Translations under genes and position numbers: made by a program
Part shown: piece after piece, positions 1,231 through 22,109 of the stretch
Layout of the letters: each line of letters starts with the position of its first letter
Numbering within the stretch: the stretch's first letter is position 1
Notes under the pieces: generated by a model
The model's database searches: none
Told to the model about the DNA's origin: nothing
What the model saw: only the letters and a program-made list of their open reading frames with translations
Source: Patescibacteria group bacterium
GTDB taxonomy: Bacteria; Patescibacteriota; Dojkabacteria; J137
Assembly: GCA_016861265.1 (NCBI GenBank)
Contig: BOLA01000001.1
Coordinates: 671,118-735,117 of the forward strand
Direction of reading: 5' to 3'
Length of the DNA: 64,000 nt

Positions 1231-3843
1231 ATGCAAGAAAAAAATACTTTTTTAATAATCGATTCTCATGCGCTAATACATAGGGCGTTTCACGCATTCC
1301 CTCCTGATTTAAAGAATGCAAAAGGTCAACCTACAAATGCAGTCTATGGTTTCGCGGGTCTATTGCTTGATGTTTTAACAAAGTTTCAGCCAACAAGGGT
1401 TGTTGCGGTTTTTGATTCGCATGGACCAACAGTTAGGAGTACGGAGTACACTCAGTACAAAGCTAATAGAGCAGCAACCGATGATCTACTGGTAACCCAA
1501 TTTCCAATGGTATATGAGCTAATTCAAATGTTTGATATTCCAATGGTAATACAAGATGGAATAGAGGCAGATGACTTAATAGGAACTCTCGACGATAAAT
1601 ATTCCAATGATGTAATGCAGACTGTGATAGTGACCGGAGATAGAGACTTGTTGCAGCTTGTTGACCAGGATACCTTTGTGTACTTAGCTGGGTCTAAATT
1701 TTCGGAATCTAAACTCTATAATACTAATGAGATGGTATTTGAGCGAATGGGTGTAGAGCCAAAACACGTAACAGATTTAAAAGGTTTGAGTGGTGATGCA
1801 TCGGATAATATCCCAGGGGTTGCGGGTATAGGTGCAAAGGGTGCTGCCGATTTAATCAATCAATTCGGAACAATCGAAGAAATTTACACTAAACTAGACC
1901 AAGTCCCAAAGAGATATCAGCAAAAGCTAATAGATGGCCACGAAGATGCAATGCTATCTAAAAGATTGGCTACAATTTTTAAGGATATTCCTATTAGCTT
2001 TAACTACGAGCATACCGACTTTTCAAGGGTTAATAAAACAAAGATATCGAGTTTCTTTGCGGAAATGCAGTTTAAATCTCTAGTTCCAAAGCTAGAAAGA
2101 TTCTTTAAGTTATTTGATGTATCAACGGAAAATGCTGGTGAGATAGACTTATTTTCGGAGCCGCTTCAATTAAAAGAAAGTCACGCAGATTTAAAAGCAC
2201 AGGAGTGGAGTAAAGATGTAGAGCTTTCCCAAGAAATTTATATATTACCTAATATTAAAGACTTTGATAAAAGTCCAATACACTGGCAGTTCGAGAGTAT
2301 ATGTATTCTTAGCAACGATGTTTTATATAAAGTGGTAGAAGGTAACATTAACGAATTCTGGATTCTTAATAACAACAAGGATTTTATTACCTTCGATAAA
2401 AAGGCAATGTATCATTGCTTCTTTAACTCTAAGATTGAATTCAGTAAATTAAATATAATTGACATAGGAATTACAGCGTATGTTTTAGCCGAAGGGCAAG
2501 CTAAGTATGAATTGTTAAGTCTATTCAATTGGGCACAAATCTACAGTGAAAATACCACGGAGTCAAAACTTACAGCACTAAGTAAATTAAATGCTTATAT
2601 TAAGAGTAGATCCGAGGATTTAGAGGTGAAAGAAAAATTAATTAAATTAGAAGATACTGTCTTGTTACCAACAATGTTAATGGAACAGAATGGTATCACC
2701 ACAGATATGCCTACTTTAAAAAACTTTGAAGAAATCTTAACAGAAAAGCTGAATGAGTTTAAGGCAAATATTTATTTAAGTGCAGGGCATGAATTTAATA
2801 TTGGATCCCCAAAGCAGGTATCGGAAGTTCTGTTCAAGGAAAAAGCCTTGCCTGTACATAGAAAGACAAAGGGAGGGTCTTTAAGCACGAACGAGTCGGC
2901 CCTAAAAAGTTTGTTGGGAGTAGATCCTATAATTGAAAATCTACTTGCCTACAGGGAAGTAGATAAATTATTGAGTACCTATATTCGATCCTTGCCTGAA
3001 TATGTGGATAACGATGGGCGAATTCATTCTGTGTTTGATCAATTCGGGGCAGTTAGCGGAAGATATTCGTCAAAAAATCCAAACCTCCAAAATATCCCCT
3101 TTACAGAGGTCTTCGGTGTAAATATTAGAAATGCCTTTGTTGCTTCGGAAGGTTATAAGTTTATTACATTCGACTATTCACAGCAGGAGCTAAGAGTGTT
3201 GGCTGCTTTATCAAAAGAAGAGGTTATGGTCGATAGTTTTAATAATGGTGTTGATATTCATAAGATTACTGCTGCGGAATTATTCGAGGTTCCAATTGAG
3301 GAAGTTGACTCGAGGCAGAGGCAAGTTGGTAAAACCGTTAATTTCTCGGTTATCTATGGAATTTCTGCTTTCGGATTGTCCGAAAGGCTTGGTTTGAATC
3401 GAGCAACAGCCGATGCCTTCATTAAAAAATACTTTGATAAGTACTCTAAGGTTAGGGATTTTATGGCAAACACTATAAATTCTGCTAAGGAAACAGGATA
3501 CAGCGAAACTATACTCGGCAGAAGGAGGGTTAATAACATGATTAAGTCAAGTAATCGGGCACTAAAGAATGCAGCCGAAAGAGAGTTGTTTAATTTTGTA
3601 ATCCAGGGAAGTGCAGCGGATATTATGAAAAGTTCAATGGTTGCATTTCCCGATATTCTTAAAAAATATAATGCCAGAATTCTTCTGCAGATTCATGACG
3701 AGTTTTTGTTTGAATTCCCTGAGGATAGTGATAATGAGTCAGAGTTTGAGATGGAGATCTCTAATGCAATGTCGCATGCACTAGACTTGGGTGTAGAGTA
3801 TAAAGTTGAAGTAAGTAAAGGTACGGTCTGGGGGCAAATTTAA
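1231..3843 (+). CDS. polA: DNA polymerase I (5'-3' exonuclease domain plus family A polymerase domain)
   Basis: 870 aa. The N-terminal FEN-like region (LIIDSHALIHRAFHA, GVAGIGAKGA) and the C-terminal pol A motifs (DYSQQELRVLA, QIHDEF) are present. The central 3'-5' exonuclease region looks degenerate. Confidence 0.9.
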   Translation: MQEKNTFLIIDSHALIHRAFHAFPPDLKNAKGQPTNAVYGFAGLLLDVLTKFQPTRVVAVFDSHGPTVRSTEYTQYKANRAATDDLLVTQFPMVYELIQMFDIPMVIQDGIEADDLIGTLDDKYSNDVMQTVIVTGDRDLLQLVDQDTFVYLAGSKFSESKLYNTNEMVFERMGVEPKHVTDLKGLSGDASDNIPGVAGIGAKGAADLINQFGTIEEIYTKLDQVPKRYQQKLIDGHEDAMLSKRLATIFKDIPISFNYEHTDFSRVNKTKISSFFAEMQFKSLVPKLERFFKLFDVSTENAGEIDLFSEPLQLKESHADLKAQEWSKDVELSQEIYILPNIKDFDKSPIHWQFESICILSNDVLYKVVEGNINEFWILNNNKDFITFDKKAMYHCFFNSKIEFSKLNIIDIGITAYVLAEGQAKYELLSLFNWAQIYSENTTESKLTALSKLNAYIKSRSEDLEVKEKLIKLEDTVLLPTMLMEQNGITTDMPTLKNFEEILTEKLNEFKANIYLSAGHEFNIGSPKQVSEVLFKEKALPVHRKTKGGSLSTNESALKSLLGVDPIIENLLAYREVDKLLSTYIRSLPEYVDNDGRIHSVFDQFGAVSGRYSSKNPNLQNIPFTEVFGVNIRNAFVASEGYKFITFDYSQQELRVLAALSKEEVMVDSFNNGVDIHKITAAELFEVPIEEVDSRQRQVGKTVNFSVIYGISAFGLSERLGLNRATADAFIKKYFDKYSKVRDFMANTINSAKETGYSETILGRRRVNNMIKSSNRALKNAAERELFNFVIQGSAADIMKSSMVAFPDILKKYNARILLQIHDEFLFEFPEDSDNESEFEMEISNAMSHALDLGVEYKVEVSKGTVWGQI

Positions 3844-4807: not shown

Positions 4808-6319
4808 TTTATGGAGAGTTTGATCCTGGCTCAGGGTTAACGCTAGCGATGTGCCTAAGGTATGCAAGTCGAACGGTGAAATTTTGGTAGCAATACTGAA
4901 ATTTCGCAGTGGCAAACGGCTGAGTAACGCGTGGGAATCTCCCCCTAAGTCTGATATAGCTCACCGAAAGGTGGGGTAATCTCAGATAGTCTCGCGAGAG
5001 TAAAGATTTTTCGCTTAGGGATGAGCCCGCGTCCTATCAGGTTGTTGGTGAGGTAATGGCTCACCAAGCCTATGACGGGTAGCTGGTCTGAGAGGATGGC
5101 CAGCCAGACTGGGACTGCGATACGGCCCAGACTCCTACGGGAGGCAGCAACTAGGAATTATGCACAATGGCCGAAAGGCTGATGCTGCGACATCGCGTGG
5201 AGGATGAAGGTCTTAGGATCGTAAACTCCTTTTATCTACGAACAAGTTCTGAGTGTAGTAGATGAATAAGTGCCTGCCAACCACGTGCCAGAAGCATCGG
5301 TAATACGTGGGACACAAGCGTTACCCGGATTCACTGGGCGTAAAGAGATGCGTAGGCGTCTAGAAAAGTTCTGTGTTAAATCTCAAGGCTCACCCTTGAA
5401 ACTGCATAGAAAACTCTCTGGATTGAGTCATGTAGAGAAGAAGGGAATTCCTGGTGGAGCGGTTAAATGCGTTGATATCAGGAGGAACACCAATGGCGAA
5501 AGCACTTCTTTGGACATGTACTGACGCTAAGGCTCGAAAGTGTGGGGAGCAAAACGGATTAGATACCCGTGTAGTCCACACCGTAAACGATCCCTATTAG
5601 ATGTTCGAATTCTTGCTGAAATTTCTCTTCGGAGAAGGATAAGCATTATTTGAGTGTCGCAGCTAACGCGTTAAATAGGGCGCCTGTGAAGTACGACCGC
5701 AAGGTTAAAACACAAAGGAATTGACGGGGACCCGCACAAGCAGTGGAGTGCCTGGTTTAATTCGATGATCAGCGAAGAACCTCACCTGGGCTTGAACTGT
5801 AGCTGCAAACCCTATGAAAATAGGGCTCTTTCGAAGGTGCTATAGAGGTGATGCATGGCTGTTGTCAGCTCGTGTCGTGAGATGTCGGGTTAAGTCCCAC
5901 AACGAGCGCAACCCCTTTCAGATGTTACAATTACTTCTGATACTGCCCCGCCCAAACGGGGAGGAAGGAGGGGATGACATCCAGTCATCATGTCCCTTAT
6001 GTCCAGGGCTACACAGACACTACAATGGCGATATACAATGGGCTGCCAAACCGCGAGGTGGAGCTAATCCCATCAAAGATCGTCTCAGTTCAGATTGCAG
6101 GCTGCAACTCGCCTGTATGAAGTTGGAATTGCTAGTAATCGGACATCAGCATGGTCCGGTGAATACGTTCTCGGGTCTTGTACACACCGCCCGTCAGGGC
6201 ATGGGAGTTGCTCATACTCGAAGTCTACGTTTATCGTGGCCGAAAGTTATGGGTGGCGACTGGGCTTAAGTCGTAACAAGGTAGCCGTAGGGGAATCTGC
6301 GGCTGGATTACCTCCTTTC
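4808..6319 (+). rRNA. rrs: 16S ribosomal RNA
   Basis: The 5' end reads GAGTTTGATCCTGGCTCAG and the 3' end reads GTCGTAACAAGGTAGCCGTAGGGGAATCTGCGGCTGGATTACCTCCTTT. The length is about 1.51 kb and internal conserved blocks are present. Confidence 0.95.
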
Positions 6320-6468
6320 TAAGGAGTTAATCAACCAACTTTAACTAAGTTAAAGATTGTTTGATTCTTACCCATGATTTTGATACTCAAGGAAATTTAG
6401 AACCTTGTCACTTTTTTGTATTCAAAGATTTTTAAAAATTACCAGTAAGTTGCTGGTATGTTGAACAC

Positions 6469-6545
6469 AGGCCAATAGCTCAGCTGGTTAGAGCGCACCT
6501 CTGATAAGGGTGAGGTCCATGGTTCGAGTCCATGTTGGCCTACCA
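6469..6545 (+). tRNA. tRNA-Ile (GAT) in the 16S-23S spacer
   Basis: Cloverleaf with anticodon loop CTGATAA. The acceptor stem is AGGCCAA/TTGGCCT and a CCA end is encoded. Confidence 0.9.
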
Positions 6546-6625
6546 TTAATCAGAATACTAAATAGTAATTAGAAATTTATTTTGCTAAAATTTATAGCTT
6601 TAAATTGCTAATATTGTTTATTGTC

Positions 6626-6703
6626 GGGGCCTTAGCATAGCTGGTTTATTGCGCCTCATTTGCAATGAGGAGGTCAAGGGTTCGAATCCCTTAGGCTCCA
6701 CCA
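6626..6703 (+). tRNA. tRNA-Ala (TGC) in the 16S-23S spacer
   Basis: The sequence reads GGGGCCTTAGC...ATTTGCAAT... with a TTCGAATCC T-loop and an encoded CCA. Confidence 0.9.
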
Positions 6704-6802
6704 TTTTTGTTGTTTAATTAAAGTCAAAAGACGTAAATTAGCCAACAAAGTTTGGTTAAAACTTTGTTCATTAAAAACTGAATAGAAAGATATAATACAG
6801 AT

Positions 6803-9867
<3,065 letters not shown>

Positions 9868-10033
9868 TCTTTCAGCTTTCAGTTGTCAGTTAAGAGTGAT
9901 CTTTCTGATTACTTGAGACTGTAGACTGGAAACTCAATTATATCTTTTCTATTCAGTTTTTTTTGAACAAAGTTCAAAATTAACAATTTAAACTACGTCG
10001 TCATTAGACAAAAGTGCTTAATAAAAGCTTTTT

Positions 10034-10153
10034 TGTCCGGTGACGGTATCGCTTTGGACCCACCTGATCCCATTCCGAACTCAGAAGTGAAACATAGTTG
10101 AGCCGAAGGTACTTACGGGATACCCTGTCGGGAGAATAGGTAGTTGCCGGTAT
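10034..10153 (+). rRNA. rrf: 5S ribosomal RNA
   Basis: CCGAACTCAGAAGTGAAAC, GGGAGAATAGGTAGTTGCCGG and the terminal helix TGTCCGG/CCGGTAT are present. Confidence 0.9.
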
Positions 10154-10520: not shown

Positions 10521-10953
10521 ATTATTAAGTATACGTTTTTTTGGGGGAGTCTACCATTGACTAAATCCTCCAAATATTATATTTTCTTAAAGAATAATTT
10601 TATTCATACCACTCAAGCGTGAGTGGGTTCTGCTTTACGAACTAATAAGTAAAAGCAGTCCTTTACTTGTTAAATATGAAAGGAGGTAATCTATGCTGTG
10701 CAGGTTTTCTGCGACTATCTCAATTGAAGGCAATAGATTTTCTCCAAATCAGAATTGCTGATATTCCCTACTGTAGTCTTCAATTGTAAGGGAATAGGTA
10801 TGTTGTCATATAATAGGAGATTTAAGCCCAGCTTTAAGCTGGGCTTTTTAATTATGCCAAATAAAGCTTTTATATTAATATATAATAAGACAGGAATTTA
10901 ATAAGCAGGGTATAATAGGAGTTCGTGTCAGTATTAATCTGATAGAATATTAA

Positions 10954-11655
10954 TTGATTTTATTAATTATGCCGCAAAAACCCGATTTTCAATTTAATTT
11001 TGAACACCTATCAAAGCGAAAGCAAGAAGCAGAACTACGCTTGCAACAATTAAATCTTCACGAGGTTCCAATTCAAGATACTAAAGATGTTCCTGCATTA
11101 TTAGCTCAGCCAGACCTTTCTTCTCTAATTATTCAGACAAGATTAAGGGAAATATTAAGGTGCTACAATTACTCCGAAGATGAAATAACCACACAATTAG
11201 CCAATCCGGAGTTCGCGTTTAAAATTGCTATTAGCCTAATTACTCAAGATTACTTCCTGTATGCTTTTTTTAAAGGCAACGGAGAGGTAAATTATGACTT
11301 AATGTTCTTAGGAGATAAAAATGAATTTAACCCAGAAGACTATGTCTTTGATTTAGAAGCAAACTATTTAGACTTTAATCAGATAAACCCATTTAATAAG
11401 CCTCAGGTTGAAATTGCGGACACTTCAGGTATTCCTAAATATATAATTGGACCAGAAGGTGAGACCTCAAAAATCTACCCAACAAAGAAAATAGACGACA
11501 TTCTTCCCGGTACAATAGGTTACGACATATTAATTCTTCAAGGTAGAGTAAACATAACCTCAAATGGAGATATAAATATATATAAACCTCAAATTACGAT
11601 GATTGGCAGGCCTTTAAAAGGGGATCCAGTTAGTGTATTTGTAAAACGAAACTAA
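10954..11655 (+). CDS. Hypothetical protein
   Basis: 233-aa ORF with typical local codon usage. No recognisable motif. Confidence 0.45.
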   Translation: MILLIMPQKPDFQFNFEHLSKRKQEAELRLQQLNLHEVPIQDTKDVPALLAQPDLSSLIIQTRLREILRCYNYSEDEITTQLANPEFAFKIAISLITQDYFLYAFFKGNGEVNYDLMFLGDKNEFNPEDYVFDLEANYLDFNQINPFNKPQVEIADTSGIPKYIIGPEGETSKIYPTKKIDDILPGTIGYDILILQGRVNITSNGDINIYKPQITMIGRPLKGDPVSVFVKRN

Positions 11656-11733
11656 GCTCTACTAAAATTAAGTATCAGAATGCTATAATCACTTGCACAC
11701 AAATAAATCGGTAGGTTTATGTGAGGTGGACAA

Positions 11734-12156
11734 ATGGAAAAGGCATGGTTTAGAGACAACCCTGCATTGTTGCGTAGGGTTGTTGCAGCAATCGGTGCTT
11801 TGCCTTCTAGTATTAGCGAACCGGACTTCTATCTACAGGAGTTTCAGTCGATAACACGGGGCGAAGTGGTCGCAGTTACTATTCTCAGGGGGTATGCCTA
11901 CGCTGCGGATGAGGAGATGGTCGAAAAGGCATTCCTGATCGATCCGCACACTGGGTCCCCAAAGGGCGAGCTTGATTTCTGGCTCAAGACCGAAAGCGGT
12001 AAGGTAAGACCGGGGAGGGAAGATCCCCCGGCATATACCGTGGTCAGGGATGCAACTCGCGCTGTTTTGTTCACCGTGAGCTTCCGTTATAGGAAGGTCA
12101 CATATGCACTGTGCAAGGACAAGACCTACATTCTCAACATTGAGTGTGTGCAGTAG
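11734..12156 (+). CDS. Hypothetical protein encoded in a GC-rich island. Probably horizontally acquired, and a structured RNA is not excluded.
   Basis: 140-aa ORF preceded by a GAGGTGG Shine-Dalgarno site (11723-11729) and an extended -10 element TGCTATAAT (11681-11689). The ORF is about 55-60% GC, against about 32% in the flanks. Confidence 0.4.
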   Translation: MEKAWFRDNPALLRRVVAAIGALPSSISEPDFYLQEFQSITRGEVVAVTILRGYAYAADEEMVEKAFLIDPHTGSPKGELDFWLKTESGKVRPGREDPPAYTVVRDATRAVLFTVSFRYRKVTYALCKDKTYILNIECVQ

Positions 12157-12324
12157 GTCTTTACTCGACGTGCGATATGGGAAGGTTAACCTTCCCATAT
12201 TAGTTATTAAAGACAATACTAATAGGTGTTATGGACAAACTCGCCAGGATTAGATATAATCCTTCTTGCTTAAGGTTAGTCTTACCCATTCGGTAAAATC
12301 CAAAACTAAAAATAAGCAAAAACT

Positions 12325-13536
12325 ATGGCAAATACAGCCAAAAACAAACAAGCATCAGAGCTTTTAGATGCAGTTGTCCCCCCAAAAACTTATAAGAAAG
12401 GAAACATTATTGAAGGTACCGTTATTGATGTTAAAGACGGCCAAATTCTTGTAGATGTTGGCGCTAGAGCCGAAGGTGTAATTTCTGGAAGAGAAATGAA
12501 GCTTGAAGGCAAGAGAGTTAACAAAAAAGTTGGTGACGTAATTCTAGTTTATGTAGTTAATCCTGAAAATGAGGAAGGTCAAATTGAACTTTCCATTAGA
12601 AGAACTGGCTCAGAACTAAAATGGCACGAACTTGAATTAGCTAAGAAAAACGAAACTCCAATCGAAGTAAAGGTTATTGAAGCCAATACCGGAGGTGTTA
12701 TTGTTGAAATTAGCGAGACTATGAGAGGATTTGTACCTAGTTCTCAACTTAATAATAAAAGAATCTATGCTCCAAACTTATACTCTTCAAAAGAAGACTC
12801 TACAAAGGTTCTTCAGACTAAGTTAGCTGAGATGATCGGCGAAACTTTGAAGGTGAAAGTAATGGAAATAGATAAGGAGAAGAATAAAGTTATCCTTTCT
12901 GAAAAATCCGTATATTCCGAAACTGACATGAAGTTAAGAACACAAACATTAACTTCTTTGAAAGTTGGAGATGTATTGGAAGGTGCTGTTACAGGTATCG
13001 CTCCATTCGGATTATTCATTAATGCTCAGGGTCTTGAAGGATTAGTTCACTTGTCCGAAATTTCTTGGGATAAGGTAATTTCACCTGCAGACTTCTACCA
13101 TGTAGGAGATATTGTTAAGGTTCAAGTTATCGGATTACAGGACAATGGAAAGAGAGTAGCTTACTCCATTAAGAGACTACAAGAGGATCCATGGAAGAGC
13201 ATTGTACAAAAGTACAAAGTGGGTCAAATCGTAGAAGGTGAAGTTAAATCTATTGCTGACTACGGTGCATTTATTAAAATTGAAGACGGACTTAACGGCT
13301 TAGTTCATATTTCTGAACTATCAAGCAAATTAGTTAAGAATCCTTCTCAAGTAGTAAATGTTGGGGACAAAATCAAGGTAATGATAATCTCTATCTCAAA
13401 CGACGATAGACATTTAGGATTATCTTTAAAAAGAGCTCAAAAAACTGATGCAGCTACAGATGATGCATCTTCTAGAGAGTTAGAGGAATTAGACAAACTA
13501 ATTTCCGAGACTACTCCGGCAGAGAAAGCTGAGTAA
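12325..13536 (+). CDS. rpsA: 30S ribosomal protein S1 (short form with four S1 domains)
   Basis: Four repeated S1/OB domains (GxV...G.FV...GL.GL.H.SE...) in 403 aa. Confidence 0.85.
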   Translation: MANTAKNKQASELLDAVVPPKTYKKGNIIEGTVIDVKDGQILVDVGARAEGVISGREMKLEGKRVNKKVGDVILVYVVNPENEEGQIELSIRRTGSELKWHELELAKKNETPIEVKVIEANTGGVIVEISETMRGFVPSSQLNNKRIYAPNLYSSKEDSTKVLQTKLAEMIGETLKVKVMEIDKEKNKVILSEKSVYSETDMKLRTQTLTSLKVGDVLEGAVTGIAPFGLFINAQGLEGLVHLSEISWDKVISPADFYHVGDIVKVQVIGLQDNGKRVAYSIKRLQEDPWKSIVQKYKVGQIVEGEVKSIADYGAFIKIEDGLNGLVHISELSSKLVKNPSQVVNVGDKIKVMIISISNDDRHLGLSLKRAQKTDAATDDASSRELEELDKLISETTPAEKAE

Positions 13537-13558
13537 TTAGCTATTTGTAGATTGTTGG

Positions 13559-13583
13559 CCCTCGAGAAATCGAGGGTTTTTTT
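13559..13583 (+). terminator. Rho-independent terminator after rpsA
   Basis: CCCTCGAGAAATCGAGGG followed by TTTTTTT. Confidence 0.7.
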
Positions 13584-13689
13584 ATCTCTCAGAAAATAGT
13601 CATTGTACGTAAGGCTTATAGAAAAGTATACCTCCAAAAATTAAAATTAGCATGCTATACTTGTAACTGCTAAATGTTAAAATTTTCTA

Positions 13690-16212
13690 ATGGAAGATGA
13701 AGATATTAAAGGAATAAATAGACTTACTACCAATGCAAGAAGGGTAATTGAACAGGCTTATACAAATGCAGGAAGATACAAGTATAACGAATTCAAGGCT
13801 ATTCATCTTTTTTATACATTACTTCAGGATAAAGGGGGTATTGTATTCGAAATTTTGAACAAGCTTGGTGTAGACATAGAGTCCAGTGCAAGCAGAATTC
13901 TCAAGGAATTTGAGGAAAACGAGGCCCTACACATAGGAGAAGGGGTTCAAACGATTTTCGGAAAAGAAATTAAGGATGTTATAAATGAAAGTTTTATTGT
14001 TGCATTCAATTTGAACCATTTGTACATAGGAACTGAACACCTATTGTTGGGAATGTTTAATTTAAAAGATGTTCCCTTTATTGAAGAGCTTAAAAGCTTA
14101 GGCTTAAACGCAGAAGCAATTCGAAGAACTCTAGTTTCAGTGGGTAATTATAATGCACTAACTTCTGTGCTTAAAAATTCTGAAATGAATAATATAAATG
14201 AGTTTGGGCCTGAGTTCGGTCAAGGCGCCAAATCTGCTTTACCATACTTTACAAGGAATATGAACGAAGTTGCCGAGGAAGGTGGTTATCCTAATATTTC
14301 AGGAAGAGACCAGGAAATTCAAAGACTTATTCATATACTTGCAAGAAAAACAAAAAATAACCCAATACTAGTAGGAGATGCAGGAGTTGGTAAAACGGCT
14401 ATCGTAGAAGGTTTTGTGAACGCTATCGTAAAAAAGAAAGTACCGGCGTCATTCTTGAATGCAAAAGTGTTGAGTCTGGATATTGGCGCAGTATTGTCTG
14501 GAGCAAAGCTTAGAGGAGATGTTGAGGAAAGAATTTCGGCAGTAATTAACGAAGCAATGAATGATGAAAATACAATCATATTTATTGATGAAATTCATAA
14601 TATAGTAGGAGCAGGTAGTGCGGGCGGTAAGGACACCATGGACATTGCAAATATGTTAAAACCTTATCTAACAAACTCTACATTAAGTATTATTGGTGCA
14701 ACTACTCAAGATGAATACAGTAAATATTTTGAAACCGATTCTGCACTAACCAGAAGATTCCAGCCAATAACAGTTGACGAGTTAAGTATTGATAGTGCTA
14801 AACAAGTAATTTCAAAAGTGACTCCAGATCTAGAGAAATATCATAATGTAAAGATCACCGAAGAAGCTATAAATTCAGCTGTAGATTTATCGAATAAGTT
14901 TATTAGAGATAGGTATCTTCCCGACAAAGCCATAGACGTACTAGACGAAGCAGCAGCTAGCGTAAAAGTGGGCCGGGAAAAGGCATTAGAGCCCCAAATT
15001 AACGAGCTTAGTGATAAGTTGATTGATTACCAAAATAAAAAGAATGAGGCGTTAAAAAAACAGGATTTTAAAAGTGCAGCTAACTACAGGGAAAAGGAAG
15101 AGGGAATTGTTGAAGAGATTCAGGAAGTTATTAGTGGTAAAAAGAAAGTGGGTATTAAATATTCCAAGGTTGTATCTACAGATTTAATTAAAGAAATCAT
15201 AGTGGAATGGACAAAGATTCCAATTGTGGCGGCAGATATTTCCGATAAAAAGTTAAAGGATTTAGCCGATAATTTAAGAAAAAGGATAGTAGGAGAGGAT
15301 AGAGTTATTGATAACGTTGCGCAGGCCGTGCAAAGGTCTCATTTGGGTTTGAATGGGGGCAATAGGCCATTAGCAAGTTTTATGTTCCTGGGTCCTACGG
15401 GAGTAGGAAAAACTGAGTTAGCTAAGACTTTAGCGAAGGAGCTATTCGGTTCAGAAAATCTTCTGCACCAGATTAATATGAGTGAGTACATGGAAATGCA
15501 TAGTGTTTCAAAACTAATAGGTTCGCCTCCTGGATATGTAGGTTACCAGGAAGGTGGTCAGTTAACTACATTCGTAAAAAGAAAACCATATTCTGTTGTA
15601 CTTTTTGACGAAATTGAAAAGGCTCATCTAGATGTATTAAATATTCTGCTTCAAATTTTAGAGGAAGGAGAGCTTACTGATGGAAAGGGCAACAAGGTTA
15701 GTTTTAAGAACACAATTATAATTCTTACATCTAATATCGGCGCTGACGATATTTCAGAAGACTCAAAGCTTGGATTTGATATCGAAGTCGAGGATATTAA
15801 AAAGGACGAAATGGAAGAAGCCTATGATGACATGAGAAATAGGGTAATGGAAGAATTAAGAGAGACTCTAAGGCCAGAATTGCTAAATAGAATAGATTTA
15901 ATAGACATATTTAGAGGTCTAAATAAAGATGATTGCCTAAAGATTTCTAAGCTTACAATAGATGAATTTACGAAAAGATTAATTCCTTTAGGAATACTAT
16001 TTGAAGCGACAGAAGATGTTGTTAAGAAAATTAATGATGAAGGATACAGCAAGGAATACGGGGCAAGAAATATTAGAAGAAAAGTTCAAGAGCTACTAGA
16101 AAATGGGTTGGCAGAATTTTTATTAAAACAAAAACTATCTAAGAAAAGAAAAGATCTAGTAAAGATTGTAGCCTCTGTAAAGGGCGATAAGATTGTATTT
16201 ACTAGTAATTAA
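13690..16212 (+). CDS. clpC: ATP-dependent Clp protease ATP-binding subunit, ClpC-like class I AAA+ chaperone
   Basis: N-terminal Clp_N repeats and two AAA+ modules (GDAGVGKTAIVEG; GPTGVGKTELAK). The middle domain is short with a UVR-like motif, which points to ClpC rather than ClpB. Confidence 0.85.
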   Translation: MEDEDIKGINRLTTNARRVIEQAYTNAGRYKYNEFKAIHLFYTLLQDKGGIVFEILNKLGVDIESSASRILKEFEENEALHIGEGVQTIFGKEIKDVINESFIVAFNLNHLYIGTEHLLLGMFNLKDVPFIEELKSLGLNAEAIRRTLVSVGNYNALTSVLKNSEMNNINEFGPEFGQGAKSALPYFTRNMNEVAEEGGYPNISGRDQEIQRLIHILARKTKNNPILVGDAGVGKTAIVEGFVNAIVKKKVPASFLNAKVLSLDIGAVLSGAKLRGDVEERISAVINEAMNDENTIIFIDEIHNIVGAGSAGGKDTMDIANMLKPYLTNSTLSIIGATTQDEYSKYFETDSALTRRFQPITVDELSIDSAKQVISKVTPDLEKYHNVKITEEAINSAVDLSNKFIRDRYLPDKAIDVLDEAAASVKVGREKALEPQINELSDKLIDYQNKKNEALKKQDFKSAANYREKEEGIVEEIQEVISGKKKVGIKYSKVVSTDLIKEIIVEWTKIPIVAADISDKKLKDLADNLRKRIVGEDRVIDNVAQAVQRSHLGLNGGNRPLASFMFLGPTGVGKTELAKTLAKELFGSENLLHQINMSEYMEMHSVSKLIGSPPGYVGYQEGGQLTTFVKRKPYSVVLFDEIEKAHLDVLNILLQILEEGELTDGKGNKVSFKNTIIILTSNIGADDISEDSKLGFDIEVEDIKKDEMEEAYDDMRNRVMEELRETLRPELLNRIDLIDIFRGLNKDDCLKISKLTIDEFTKRLIPLGILFEATEDVVKKINDEGYSKEYGARNIRRKVQELLENGLAEFLLKQKLSKKRKDLVKIVASVKGDKIVFTSN

Positions 16213-17996: not shown

Positions 17997-19199
17997 TTGA
18001 AACTACCTAAAAGAAAAACTTCTGAATCAATACAATCAAAAAAGAAAGTGGGTAGTCCATTAAAAAGAATTAAATCAATTAAATGGATTCCTGTTAATAT
18101 TGCAGATCTTGTTATTAAAATCTTTAACTCAATAAAGAATGCATTTGTATACAGATCCTATTGGGGTAGGAGTAATACATATAAACAAGCCGTTCATATT
18201 GCAATATTTGTAATTACAATAGTTGTTGCTTTCTCCGGGGTTTCTTATAGAATATTCGGTTTAAACGAGTCTAGTCAGAGTTTAAGTAGTAATTACCTAG
18301 GCAACGCAGGTAATGTAGATCTTCTCCAACAAGGAGGTAGTGTACAGAGTTTAATTGCTTCAATCTCATCTACCCCTTTTAAAATTAACTACTATCAAGT
18401 TCAGTCAGGAGACAGCCTACAAAGTATAGCCGAAAAATTTGGAGTTTCTAAGGAAACAATAAAATGGTCAAATGTAGACAAGTATGGTAATTATGACTCC
18501 TATACAAATGAAACAGTAAATATAGGAGACGAATTAAAGATTCCAGAAATAACAGGTGTATTATATGAAGTTAGAGAGGGTGATACTCTCGATTCAATCC
18601 TAAATAAGACAAGTGGTGACCGATTCACTACAATTGAGGTTAATCAAATTCAATCCGATAACTCAATTGTTGGTAGACAAACAATTCTAGTTCCTGATGG
18701 ACGTCTTGCAGCTCCCCAGCCTCCTTTGCCGGTATATAATGTCTTCTACAGACCTAGACCAGCAGCAGGTGACTGTACAAGTGGCACAGGTACACCAATT
18801 AATGGGATTACATTATCCAACCCTCTTTGTAGTAAAGACTGTGAAGGATATACAATATCTCAATACTATTCAGGTCCGTATCCGCTCCATGATGGTATCG
18901 ATTTATCTAAAGGCGGTGGTTGTACGGAGAGTGCATTGTGTGATGGTATAATTACTTTTGCTGGTGATGCAGGGTTTAATAATGGGGGGTATGTTGTTAA
19001 AATAGATTGCGGAAACGGAGTTGTTGCTTCATATTTTCACGGAGATGGTAATATATGGGTATCTGCTGGAGATAAAGTTACAAAAGGTCAACCAGTACAG
19101 TACATGGGATGTACGGGTTGGTGTACTGGAACTCATCTACATTTAATAATTAAGGTAAATGGGGTAACTGTTGACCCAGGTCCTTATGTTCCTTTATAA
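17997..19199 (+). CDS. LysM-domain M23 family metallopeptidase with an N-terminal TM anchor
   Basis: Two LysM repeats (YQVQSGDSLQSIAEKFGVS; YEVREGDTLDSI) and a C-terminal M23 domain (HDGIDL...HLHL). Confidence 0.8.
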   Translation: MKLPKRKTSESIQSKKKVGSPLKRIKSIKWIPVNIADLVIKIFNSIKNAFVYRSYWGRSNTYKQAVHIAIFVITIVVAFSGVSYRIFGLNESSQSLSSNYLGNAGNVDLLQQGGSVQSLIASISSTPFKINYYQVQSGDSLQSIAEKFGVSKETIKWSNVDKYGNYDSYTNETVNIGDELKIPEITGVLYEVREGDTLDSILNKTSGDRFTTIEVNQIQSDNSIVGRQTILVPDGRLAAPQPPLPVYNVFYRPRPAAGDCTSGTGTPINGITLSNPLCSKDCEGYTISQYYSGPYPLHDGIDLSKGGGCTESALCDGIITFAGDAGFNNGGYVVKIDCGNGVVASYFHGDGNIWVSAGDKVTKGQPVQYMGCTGWCTGTHLHLIIKVNGVTVDPGPYVPL

Positions 19200-21041: not shown

Positions 21042-22109
21042 ATGAAAGATCAGACTTTTAAAGAGATTCTACAGGAGTTAGGCAATATAGAAGTAACTCC
21101 ACTTTTAACGCCTATTCCTACGAATTTATCTGAAGAAATGGATAAATTTTTTAAAACACCCGGTTACAATCCTCAATTCAAGTACAGTAGACGCGACTTA
21201 TCTATGCAACGTAAACAAATAGATGAGTCTTTTGAGAAAATAGATTCTTCTTTACTAGAAGAAACTGAGAAGAAGTACCTTCTTGATGTTGCTTTCTTTA
21301 TTGAGTGCTTAATTGATCTGAACGAGTCACTAGGTAAGGAGAATTTATTCTGGGAGAATATACAGAGAGTCTATAATTGGGACTTAAATACTACTCCGGA
21401 CTTTAACAATTTAATATTAAGAAAAGAAGTTTCTGAGAATATCTACAATGCGATTACAATAAAGCAGAAACTAGAAGAAGCCCTAAATTCTCGTAACCTA
21501 GCGTGGAAAGTGGAGATTGTAGGGAAGGATAGGAGTGATGTGAGAGTGAGTATTGATAAACGGGTAGTTAATGTAGGAGAGCAAGCAGTATCAAATCCAA
21601 TCAAGCTCAAAAAAACAATTGTTCACGAGATTGATAGTCACATAATAAGATATGAAAATGCCCTAAAAACTGGCATTTCTATAATAGTTAGGGGTAATCT
21701 GCCTGGAAAAATATTAGCCGAAGAAGGTTTTGCAGTATTTAATGAGTATAAAAATGGGGTATTAACAACAGAAGACCTAGATAGGTATAAAATGAGATTC
21801 GAATTATGTAGAGAAGGCGGTAGTTTTAGGGAAATTTATACTAAATGTATTGATGTATATAAATTAAGCTCTACAAAGGCCTTTGAGACAACTCTACGAG
21901 TAAAACGAGGCTATGGGGATACTAATTATCCATATATACATAAAAAGGATTCATCTTATCTAAAAGGTTTAGAGCTAATTATTCAATCAGTTAAAGAAGT
22001 TGAGGACTATAAACATTTGTTCTGGGGTAGAGTACCTTCGGAAAATGAATATATTTTTAGTAAGCTGAGACTGGAAGACATAGATTTTACCTACCCCAGT
22101 TGGCTTTAA
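21042..22109 (+). CDS. Hypothetical HExxH protein, possibly DUF1704/QEGLA-motif family
   Basis: Contains HEIDSH (HExxH) and a downstream AEEGFAV motif resembling QEGLA. The family assignment is from memory only. Confidence 0.4.
   Translation: MKDQTFKEILQELGNIEVTPLLTPIPTNLSEEMDKFFKTPGYNPQFKYSRRDLSMQRKQIDESFEKIDSSLLEETEKKYLLDVAFFIECLIDLNESLGKENLFWENIQRVYNWDLNTTPDFNNLILRKEVSENIYNAITIKQKLEEALNSRNLAWKVEIVGKDRSDVRVSIDKRVVNVGEQAVSNPIKLKKTIVHEIDSHIIRYENALKTGISIIVRGNLPGKILAEEGFAVFNEYKNGVLTTEDLDRYKMRFELCREGGSFREIYTKCIDVYKLSSTKAFETTLRVKRGYGDTNYPYIHKKDSSYLKGLELIIQSVKEVEDYKHLFWGRVPSENEYIFSKLRLEDIDFTYPSWL

Follow-up and report, generated by a model that had tools for sequence, protein, structure and literature searches.

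Is a block of sequence rich in guanine and cytosine (GC), set between the ribosomal RNA (rRNA) operon and rpsA of an otherwise AT-rich chromosome, a gene for a protein or for an RNA, and has it arrived there recently? The question is raised by a stretch of 64,000 nucleotides (nt) from a Patescibacteria group bacterium of the Dojkabacteria (contig BOLA01000001.1), hereafter the window, which is an AT-rich chromosome segment with 35% GC. Between the rRNA operon (4808-10152) and rpsA (12325-13536) the GC fraction, taken over 200 nt at a time, rises from 0.32-0.35 in the flanks to 0.47-0.56 over approximately 11700-12199, and at 300-nt resolution this island is the sole region of the 64 kb outside rRNA and transfer RNA (tRNA) genes that reaches 0.47 or more. 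Its neighbours are housekeeping genes (the rrn operon, rpsA, clpB, rho, ndk, mreB, polA and ftsH). We conclude that the island is a genuine protein-coding gene, complete in itself and belonging to an orphan family.

A single-gene cassette upstream of rpsA

An earlier note on the window had already pointed to the island. It is real, although the 55-60% GC given for it is slightly too high (peak 0.56 over 200 nt). The open reading frame (ORF) of 140 amino acids (aa) filling it, the extended -10 element, the Shine-Dalgarno (SD) site, the exact 26-nt palindrome and the long antisense ORF are all present as that note described them. The parts of the cassette are the following, the relatives of the window being referred to by handles (L001 and so on):

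11681-11689, plus strand: putative extended -10 element TGCTATAAT, recognised by its sequence and by an element at the same relative place in L001, L003, L020 and L018

11696-11733, plus strand: predicted 5' untranslated region (UTR) with the SD sequence GAGGTGG at 11723-11729, 4 nt 5' of the ATG, read from the sequence

11734-12156, plus strand: coding sequence (CDS) of a soluble protein of 140 aa and 15.9 kDa, supported by the ORF, same-locus homologues, the ratio of non-synonymous to synonymous divergence (dN/dS) and AlphaFold2 (AF2) models

11833-12216, minus strand: antisense ORF of 127 aa, a by-product, sharing its codon register with the sense frame

12175-12200, plus strand: perfect 26-nt palindrome with a stem of 11-13 bp, a putative intrinsic-terminator hairpin by sequence and position

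12232-12324, plus strand: rpsA promoter TGGACA-17-TATAAT (12232-12260; 11/12 matches in a promoter scan) and conserved rpsA leader, the right edge of the variable slot

Taken together, these parts read as a single-gene transcription unit in which a 140-codon ORF is preceded by an extended -10 promoter and an SD site and followed by a hairpin terminator. Transcription would start near 11696, and no match to a -35 element was found upstream of TGCTATAAT. The homologous cassettes have candidate promoter elements at the matching relative place, namely TGCTATAAT in L001, TGTTATAAT in L003 and L020, and TTGTCA-17-TATAAT in L018, and in the same four relatives the stop codon is followed by GC hairpins of differing sequence. 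Perfect stems of at least 10 bp occur at 13 places in the window, as against approximately one in shuffled sequences, and most of them stand at gene ends, so that the palindrome is non-random but is probably an ordinary terminator-type hairpin of this genome.

The island encodes a protein

Considering that GC-rich islands in AT-rich genomes are usually RNA genes, the island could be a structured non-coding or dual-function RNA gene whose ORF is incidental to its composition, an alternative that the earlier note had raised. As in other GC-rich structured RNA genes (rRNA, tRNA, RNase P RNA, transfer-messenger RNA (tmRNA) and the large non-coding RNAs (ncRNAs) of Rfam), a GC-rich island is found together with a predicted promoter and terminator of its own, and its folding energy per nt equals that of the genome's rRNA. 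Moreover, the plus strand folds with a z-score of -5.4 against dinucleotide shuffles, and both strands carry long ORFs. The island differs from such genes in its lack of an Rfam match, in its lack of a structure conserved between alleles, and in its coding pattern of substitution. At gathering scores Rfam recognised only rRNA and tRNA in the whole window, at E <= 10 positions 11500-12400 gave only chance-level matches of at most 15 bits, and ARAGORN found no tmRNA. When five alleles were placed in a codon-based alignment, the number of minimum free energy (MFE) pairs shared between subfamilies was zero, and the alifold energy was -31 kcal/mol, compared with approximately -155 kcal/mol for the single sequences.

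The frame and the amino-acid motifs are kept across alleles with only 54-66% nucleotide identity, and identity by codon position follows the order 2 > 1 > 3 in all 10 allele pairs. The dN/dS ratio (omega) is 0.24 for L003 against L020 (11 non-synonymous and 14 synonymous changes) and 0.20 for the window against L026. The conserved frame, the omega of approximately 0.2, the order of the codon positions and the absence of shared base pairs between alleles show that the island is a protein-coding gene under purifying selection and not an ncRNA of conserved structure; the pure ncRNA reading is largely refuted.

The long antisense ORF can be explained by codon usage. Antisense ORFs of 127-146 aa share the codon register of the sense frame in the alleles checked (window, L001 and L003), and antisense stops in that register correspond to the sense codons TTA, CTA and TCA, which the island gene leaves nearly unused. 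The antisense ORF is therefore a by-product and not a gene. A consensus scan found no promoter-like site on the minus strand inside 11700-12200.

In L028 the gene caller annotated a 121-aa antisense ORF (1419-1784, minus strand, corresponding approximately to 11833-12216 of the window) and passed over the conserved sense ORF of 140 aa. GC-rich genes that lack TTA, CTA and TCA codons are open to this kind of misannotation, in which a gene caller takes the antisense ORF.

An orphan protein family

The homologous ORFs are 136-142 aa long and 29-65% identical; the proteins of L001 (142 aa, 41% identity) and L003 (137 aa, 36% identity) align with that of the window over their whole length. Common to four divergent alleles are the motifs W5, D8, R15, AFL, GxPxGE, VxDxxRxV and KDKxY. 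The protein, of approximately 16 kDa, is predicted to be soluble and without a transmembrane segment, with an isoelectric point of 6.6 (6.6-6.7 in the family), a grand average of hydropathy of approximately -0.2 in the family and a maximum 19-aa hydropathy not above 1.44. Using AF2, run on only four sequences, we obtained models with a predicted local distance difference test score of 77 and a predicted TM-score of 0.73 for the window protein, and of 81 and 0.75 for P0004, an allele of 136 aa. The two models agree in topology: a helix at the N terminus, then long strands in antiparallel order.

A word-indexed search of 5.8 billion proteins, with a single sequence and then with a profile, recovered the family as four clusters, and an exhaustive HMMER search of 1.84 billion gave three representatives; P0005 and P0006, also returned by HMMER, are repeat proteins that match in five stretches and were rejected as artefacts. 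The island protein has no match in Pfam (E <= 1), PHROGs, PADLOC (nothing beyond a 10.7-bit chance match), NCBIfam or the PDB sequence profile, and orf233, its upstream neighbour in the window, has no PHROG match either. Foldseek comparison of the two AF2 models with the PDB, and with BFVD, gave no match above a probability of 0.2. Homologues are absent from IMG/VR and JGI contigs (profile scans) and from phage and plasmid records (tblastn), and a scan of JGI metagenomes for further loci with a 20-nt rpsA-leader pattern returned nothing. These database and structure searches uphold the view that the protein belongs to no recognised family. It constitutes a new orphan family, limited to one narrow clade of Candidatus Dojkabacteria (candidate phyla radiation (CPR)/Patescibacteria). 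Our literature searches brought up no account of GC-rich orphan cassettes, whether in Dojkabacteria or elsewhere in the CPR.

The RelE/ParE likeness that had been suggested for the C-terminal segment would make the protein the toxin of a toxin-antitoxin module. In agreement with this, the protein is small, its C-terminal half is rich in beta-sheet, and it lies in a region that varies between strains. It is, however, longer than these toxins (136-142 aa) and has another predicted topology, the searches of Pfam, NCBIfam, PADLOC, the PDB sequence profile and, with two models, Foldseek gave no match, and the cassette is monocistronic, with no antitoxin partner and no adjacent small ORF common to the alleles.

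The gene occupies the same slot in related lineages

A scan for ribosomal protein S1, encoded by rpsA, in species-representative genomes led to metagenome-assembled genomes labelled Candidatus Dojkabacteria, Saccharibacteria or Berkelbacteria, all of the CPR. The S1 identity to the window is 99% in L001, 99% in L002, 97% in L003, 92% in L004 and 63-73% in L005-L009. In L001 and L003 a GC-rich block without blastn similarity to the window island lies directly 5' of rpsA, L020 is a close variant of L003, and the fourth allele, P0004, was found on two short contigs (L018/L019), again just upstream of rpsA. The same slot, immediately upstream of the rpsA promoter, holds the gene in four lineages (window, L001, L003/L020 and L018/L019). 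L004 is an empty site, where the terminator of an upstream conserved ncRNA-like element is followed directly by the rpsA promoter, and in L003 and L018 the cassette sits between these two parts. L002 was discarded as a further empty site, given that a 100-N gap makes it uninformative there.

Similarity of the window to L001, L003, L004 and L018 resumes only from the rpsA -10 element and leader onward, and the upstream neighbours differ by allele (orf233 in the window, a GH5 cellulase in L001, the ncRNA-like element in L003 and L018). A profile compared with six-frame ORFs found no further island homologue elsewhere in the window or in L001-L020. The island is 100% or near-identical in L025-L029, L031 and L033-L035, and the identical 140-aa protein is present on four contigs from at least three samples. 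L027 and L031 show 17 differences from the window, all of them within 11673-11895 (the upstream region and the 5' part of the ORF), with rpsA-clpB 99.5-99.8% identical.

Between the window and L003, dS is 0.44 for rpsA (dN 0.024), 1.26 for rho (dN 0.029), 2.6 for clpB (dN 0.089) and 2.9 for the M23 peptidase gene (dN 0.40); for the island dS is saturated, dN is 0.75 and omega is approximately 0.19. The island behaves as a very fast-evolving resident gene. The recent acquisition proposed in the earlier note is contradicted by GC-rich orthologues in the same slot of L001, L003/L020 and L018, lineages that have come close to saturation against the window at the synonymous sites of clpB, rho and M23. 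This implies that the gene was present in the common ancestor or has long circulated within the clade. None of the orthologues at the locus is AT-rich, the state that would have spoken for a gene of host origin. As in a recent genomic island, composition and codon usage are atypical; unlike in one, close relatives carry the gene at the locus, and only L004 and genomes further removed lack it.

The simplest account of its history is that the gene was gained once, after L004 had split off, and was then inherited and exchanged among members of the clade. The upstream flank places L018 with L003, as the island alleles do, and recombination is seen as a mosaic of dS along L003/L020, from 0.055 to 1.8. 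Allele replacement or hypermutation, which had been considered in view of 41% island identity beside 99% S1 identity, was dropped, as clpB, rho and M23 show rpsA to be the exception in genomes that approach synonymous saturation. The comparison of island dS with that of its neighbours was likewise abandoned as a test of synonymous constraint: it was lower in two pairs and higher in the third, and is confounded by the mosaic recombination.

Two neighbouring genes are worth describing in their own right. The dS of rpsA lies far below that of its neighbours (0.44 against 1.3-2.9, window against L003), and its leader (12261-12324, TGCTTAAGGTTAGTCTTACC...GGTAAAATCC), which includes a hairpin, is nearly invariant. 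This low divergence suggests strong codon and leader constraint, possibly with S1 autoregulation, or a recombination tract. The M23/LysM peptidase gene (window 17997-19199) has a dS of 1.8 and a dN of 0.36 between L003 (11608-12777) and L020 (7229-8434), compared with a dS of 0.05-0.48 for neighbouring genes; this has the look of an allele swap in a surface or cell-wall enzyme and points to mosaic recombination in the clade.

Composition and codon usage of the alleles

The 140-aa ORF has 51.5% GC, with 0.54, 0.43 and 0.58 at the first, second and third codon positions (GC3 for the last), compared with 34-37% GC and a GC3 of 0.28-0.34 in host genes. In all lineages the island alleles have 50-55% GC and a GC3 of 0.53-0.62, against 0.28 for host genes. 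From 4/11 to 9/9 of their Arg codons are CGN, while CGT and CGC together make up 2 of the 160 Arg codons in seven host genes (e.g. within 12325-16212); they also prefer AAG over AAA and nearly lack TTA. The host-foreign composition first noticed as GC content thus extends to codon usage.

For a neutral relic, a GC3 of approximately 0.35-0.45 would be expected even from a very GC-rich start, as computed from a host equilibrium GC3 of approximately 0.28 with each lineage having accumulated more than one synonymous substitution per site. The alleles lie above this range, and the GC-richness likely persists through selection.

Predicted folding of the mRNA

The CDS of each allele has an MFE of -0.35 to -0.40 kcal/mol/nt, at least as tight as 423-nt pieces of rRNA and approximately twice that of host genes. 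With protein and codon usage fixed, the four alleles gave folding z-scores of -3.1 to -3.6 against 200 synonymous-codon shuffles, and of -2.3 to -4.4 with 35-codon block shuffles, compared with a mean of -0.12 (sd 1.0, minimum -2.5) for 26 host genes used as control. Since the alleles are near synonymous saturation, these z-scores can be counted as almost independent of one another.

The MFE fold of each of the four alleles brings the SD/start region into pairing with a distal segment on the 3' side. In the window allele the SD is predicted to pair with +332 to +341 of the ORF; in L001, L003 and L018 the pairing is with sequence at the stop codon or immediately 3' of it, the paired sequences being AAAGGUUU/AAACCUUU, GGGAGA/UCUCCC and GAGAUC/GAUCUC. 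Duplex tests against shuffled 3' segments, made post hoc, gave p = 0.64 for the window and p = 0.13, 0.054 and 0.006 for L001, L003 and L018, respectively. We hypothesise from these folds that the 5' and 3' ends of the island mRNA pair.

Other GC-rich cassettes in sister strains

Sister strains carry at least three more cassettes of approximately 50-52% GC with promoter-like elements upstream of each:

L001, 2128-2679: C2, 183 aa, folding z -2.8, only two clusters among 5.8 billion proteins

L001, 7324 onward (to 7765): C3, cut by the contig end, folding z -3.0, between rpsA and clpB

L028, 1883-2377, minus strand: C4, 164 aa, folding z -2.05, with a promoter-like element and a terminator-like hairpin

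None of the three has a Pfam match, and a comparison, in which the frame of C3 was mis-set, showed no relationship among them or with the island protein. C4 is inserted 5-6 nt after the island's hairpin in L028, a strain with an S1 100% identical to that of the window, and is present or absent among strains with identical S1. The AT-rich accessory genes beside these cassettes in the same hot spot have folding z-scores of +0.5 to +1.0.

The same hot spot holds other genes as well. In L025, whose island is 100% identical to that of the window, an XRE-family helix-turn-helix gene followed by an ImmA/IrrE-type M78 peptidase gene (1205-2033) lies upstream of the orf233 homologue, and this pair is absent from the window. 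XRE and ImmA/IrrE pairs are typical of mobile-element regulators.

Origin and role of the cassette

Our best reading, which we hold to be reasonably probable, is that the island is a moron-like cassette carrying an accessory gene, and that its highly structured mRNA is under selection. Morons are defined by a promoter and terminator of their own and by deviant GC, as in the independent transcription units of HK97/HK022-type phages (PMC3594210). The island resembles them at the sequence level as a single gene with its own predicted promoter and terminator, a -10 element and a hairpin being present in all alleles. Its GC also differs from that of the surrounding genes (51.5% against 34-37%), it is inserted between elements that are adjacent in a relative (L004), and similar cassettes are present or absent between close strains. 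It differs from morons in lying in a bacterial housekeeping region and not in a phage or prophage, without any PHROG, IMG/VR or phage-record match, in being approximately 17 points GC-richer than its host and remaining so across lineages near synonymous saturation, and in the excess of mRNA folding over synonymous shuffles.

The island is also similar to the ORFan accessory genes found in genomic-island hot spots, with no homologues outside a narrow clade, fast evolution under weak-to-moderate purifying selection (omega of approximately 0.2) and a strain-variable, recombining neighbourhood. In bacteria, orphan and newly acquired genes typically have a higher AT content than the genome around them, whereas the island and its three unrelated neighbours are much GC-richer and enriched in mRNA structure.

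According to the moron-like reading, the cassette would have entered the ancestor of the clade as a foreign unit from an unsampled donor of approximately 50-55% GC, and would afterwards have passed on, along with its flanks, by inheritance and, from strain to strain, by homologous recombination. Selection on a compact transcript, that is, a long-lived and/or slowly or conditionally translated mRNA, may help to hold its GC against the AT mutation pressure of the host. The protein would act alone, given that no conserved partner gene accompanies it. As for its role, the strain-variable neighbourhood and the occurrence in sister strains of three or more unrelated cassettes built alike suggest an accessory one, most probably tied to conflict (interaction with a phage, a competitor or a host).

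Several points weigh against this reading. What the protein does is guessed from its surroundings, the searches gave no donor, and the promoter, the transcript ends and the stability of the mRNA are all predictions. TGNTATAAT occurs in the window at chance frequency (6 found, 6.0 expected), so that it is positional conservation that argues for promoter function, and the consensus terminator scan did not list the 12175-12200 hairpin. No base pairs are conserved between alleles, which means that any selection acts on generic foldedness. The unpaired probability of the ribosome-binding site (RBS), 0.25-0.43 (window 0.25), is within the host range of 0.48 +/- 0.16, and RBS occlusion was rejected for this reason as a distinctive property. 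The comparisons of dS with neighbouring genes are confounded by mosaic recombination; saturated dS is moreover imprecise, and by the lowest estimate (rho) a slow amelioration from a donor with a GC3 of approximately 95% is only borderline excluded. Finally, the polarised changes between L003 and L020 are 11 from G or C to A or T (S>W) and 5 in the reverse direction (W>S), near the ratio of approximately 2.6:1 expected from host mutation bias alone (n = 16).

Among the alternatives, a serious though unlikely one is that foreign DNA is still entering, cassettes from an unsampled mobile pool of approximately 50-55% GC (virus, plasmid or partner organism of these episymbionts) being repeatedly dropped or swapped upstream of rpsA. 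The GC-richness would then be an ameliorating donor signature, and the folding excess donor-inherited or a side effect. The foreign composition and codon usage are consistent with this, as are the nearly equal GC (50-52%) and GC3 (0.53-0.58) of four unrelated orphan cassettes, the presence or absence of C4 between strains with 100% identical S1, the fact that strains differ in everything upstream of the rpsA -10 element, the XRE/ImmA pair in the same region of L025, and the S>W to W>S ratio of 11:5, which fits neutral decay. On the other hand, no donor or homologue was found in 15 billion proteins, IMG/VR, phage or plasmid records, and no integrase, repeats or att-like sites flank the cassette. 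The island alleles group like their upstream flanks, the divergence of the island is proportionate to that of the fast-evolving resident gene M23, and the mRNA of the four alleles, like that of three other cassettes, still folds more stably than its synonymous shuffles, an excess that random decay should wear away.

More tentatively, and as an improbable case, the cassettes may form an undescribed class of unrelated orphan single-gene units of approximately 50-55% GC in intergenic slots of an AT-rich CPR genome, with transcripts selected for rRNA-like compactness. They would then be either genes for proteins that also depend on a structured, long-lived RNA, or DNA copies from an RNA-based or otherwise unsampled GC-rich replicon of Dojkabacteria.

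End-pairing of the transcript leads to a further alternative, which we consider quite doubtful. The mRNAs of hok-type type I toxins pair their 5' and 3' ends (PMC9841398, PMC1635323, PMC11228461), and for type I toxins, hok among them, this principle is established (PMC9841398, PMC11228461). By analogy, the full-length island transcript would be long-lived and translationally quiet until processed or refolded, with a product that is harmful or required only under stress. The compact and very stable predicted fold, the stand-alone cassette and the pairing of the SD/start region with a 3' segment in all four MFE folds, near the stop codon and with differing paired sequences in three of the four alleles, are in agreement with such gating, as are the duplex p values for L001, L003 and L018. 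Against it, the pairing is statistically weak, its test was post hoc and the window allele lacks a 5'-3' UTR duplex. Besides, RBS accessibility falls within the range of host genes, the consensus scan gave no promoter for an antisense RNA inside the island, and the product is a soluble 16-kDa protein and not a hydrophobic peptide of approximately 50 aa.

On the evidence given above, a structured non-coding or dual-function RNA gene is very improbable, and a RelE/ParE-like toxin is hardly credible. Two further identities were rejected. An integron gene cassette does not agree with the predicted promoter of the island's own, with a perfect palindrome lacking the mismatches of an imperfect attC, or with the absence of an integrase among the neighbouring genes scanned. 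For a diversity-generating retroelement target, blastn-short found no template repeat in the window, the search not extending to reverse transcriptase. A 17-nt exact inverted match links 11827-11843 in the island ORF with 151-167 on the opposite strand, within the 3' portion of the ftsH-like ORF (E 0.002 over the 64 kb searched), and is probably due to chance.

Other observations in the window

Downstream of the 5S rRNA gene lies a conserved element of approximately 290 nt (window 10556-10850, plus strand; L003, 5060-5362; L004, 5628-5902; L018, 1-150). It has a sigma70-like promoter (TTGACT-17-TATTTT) and a predicted intrinsic terminator (10824-10846), is 79-87% identical across genomes, and shows 10 pairs with compensatory changes in an RNAalifold consensus of only three sequences. 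No Rfam family matches it. It contains AAGGAGGT, followed by a conserved 22-codon ORF (MLCRFSATISIEGNRFSPNQNC), and is a candidate for a new ncRNA or small-protein gene.

The 23S rRNA match (6812-9860) has 3049 nt against the 2925 positions of the model, that is, approximately 120 extra nt; insertions in CPR rRNA genes are known. Just downstream of mreB, a 355-aa protein (21042-22109, plus strand) matches the Pfam family MATCAP (PF08014, microtubule-associated tyrosine carboxypeptidase) with an E of 2e-22, an unexpected family name for a CPR bacterium.

Implications

Atypical composition is routinely read as recent transfer, and a GC-rich spot in an AT-rich genome as an RNA gene; both shortcuts fail at this locus. 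As a gene the island is an ordinary orphan; its lasting compositional contrast, together with the folding excess that recurs in unrelated cassettes, sets it apart. The family adds a candidate new protein fold. If the selection on the transcript is real, the island would offer a clear example from nature of selection at the mRNA level prevailing over genomic mutation bias, in CPR bacteria, whose RNA metabolism is almost unknown.

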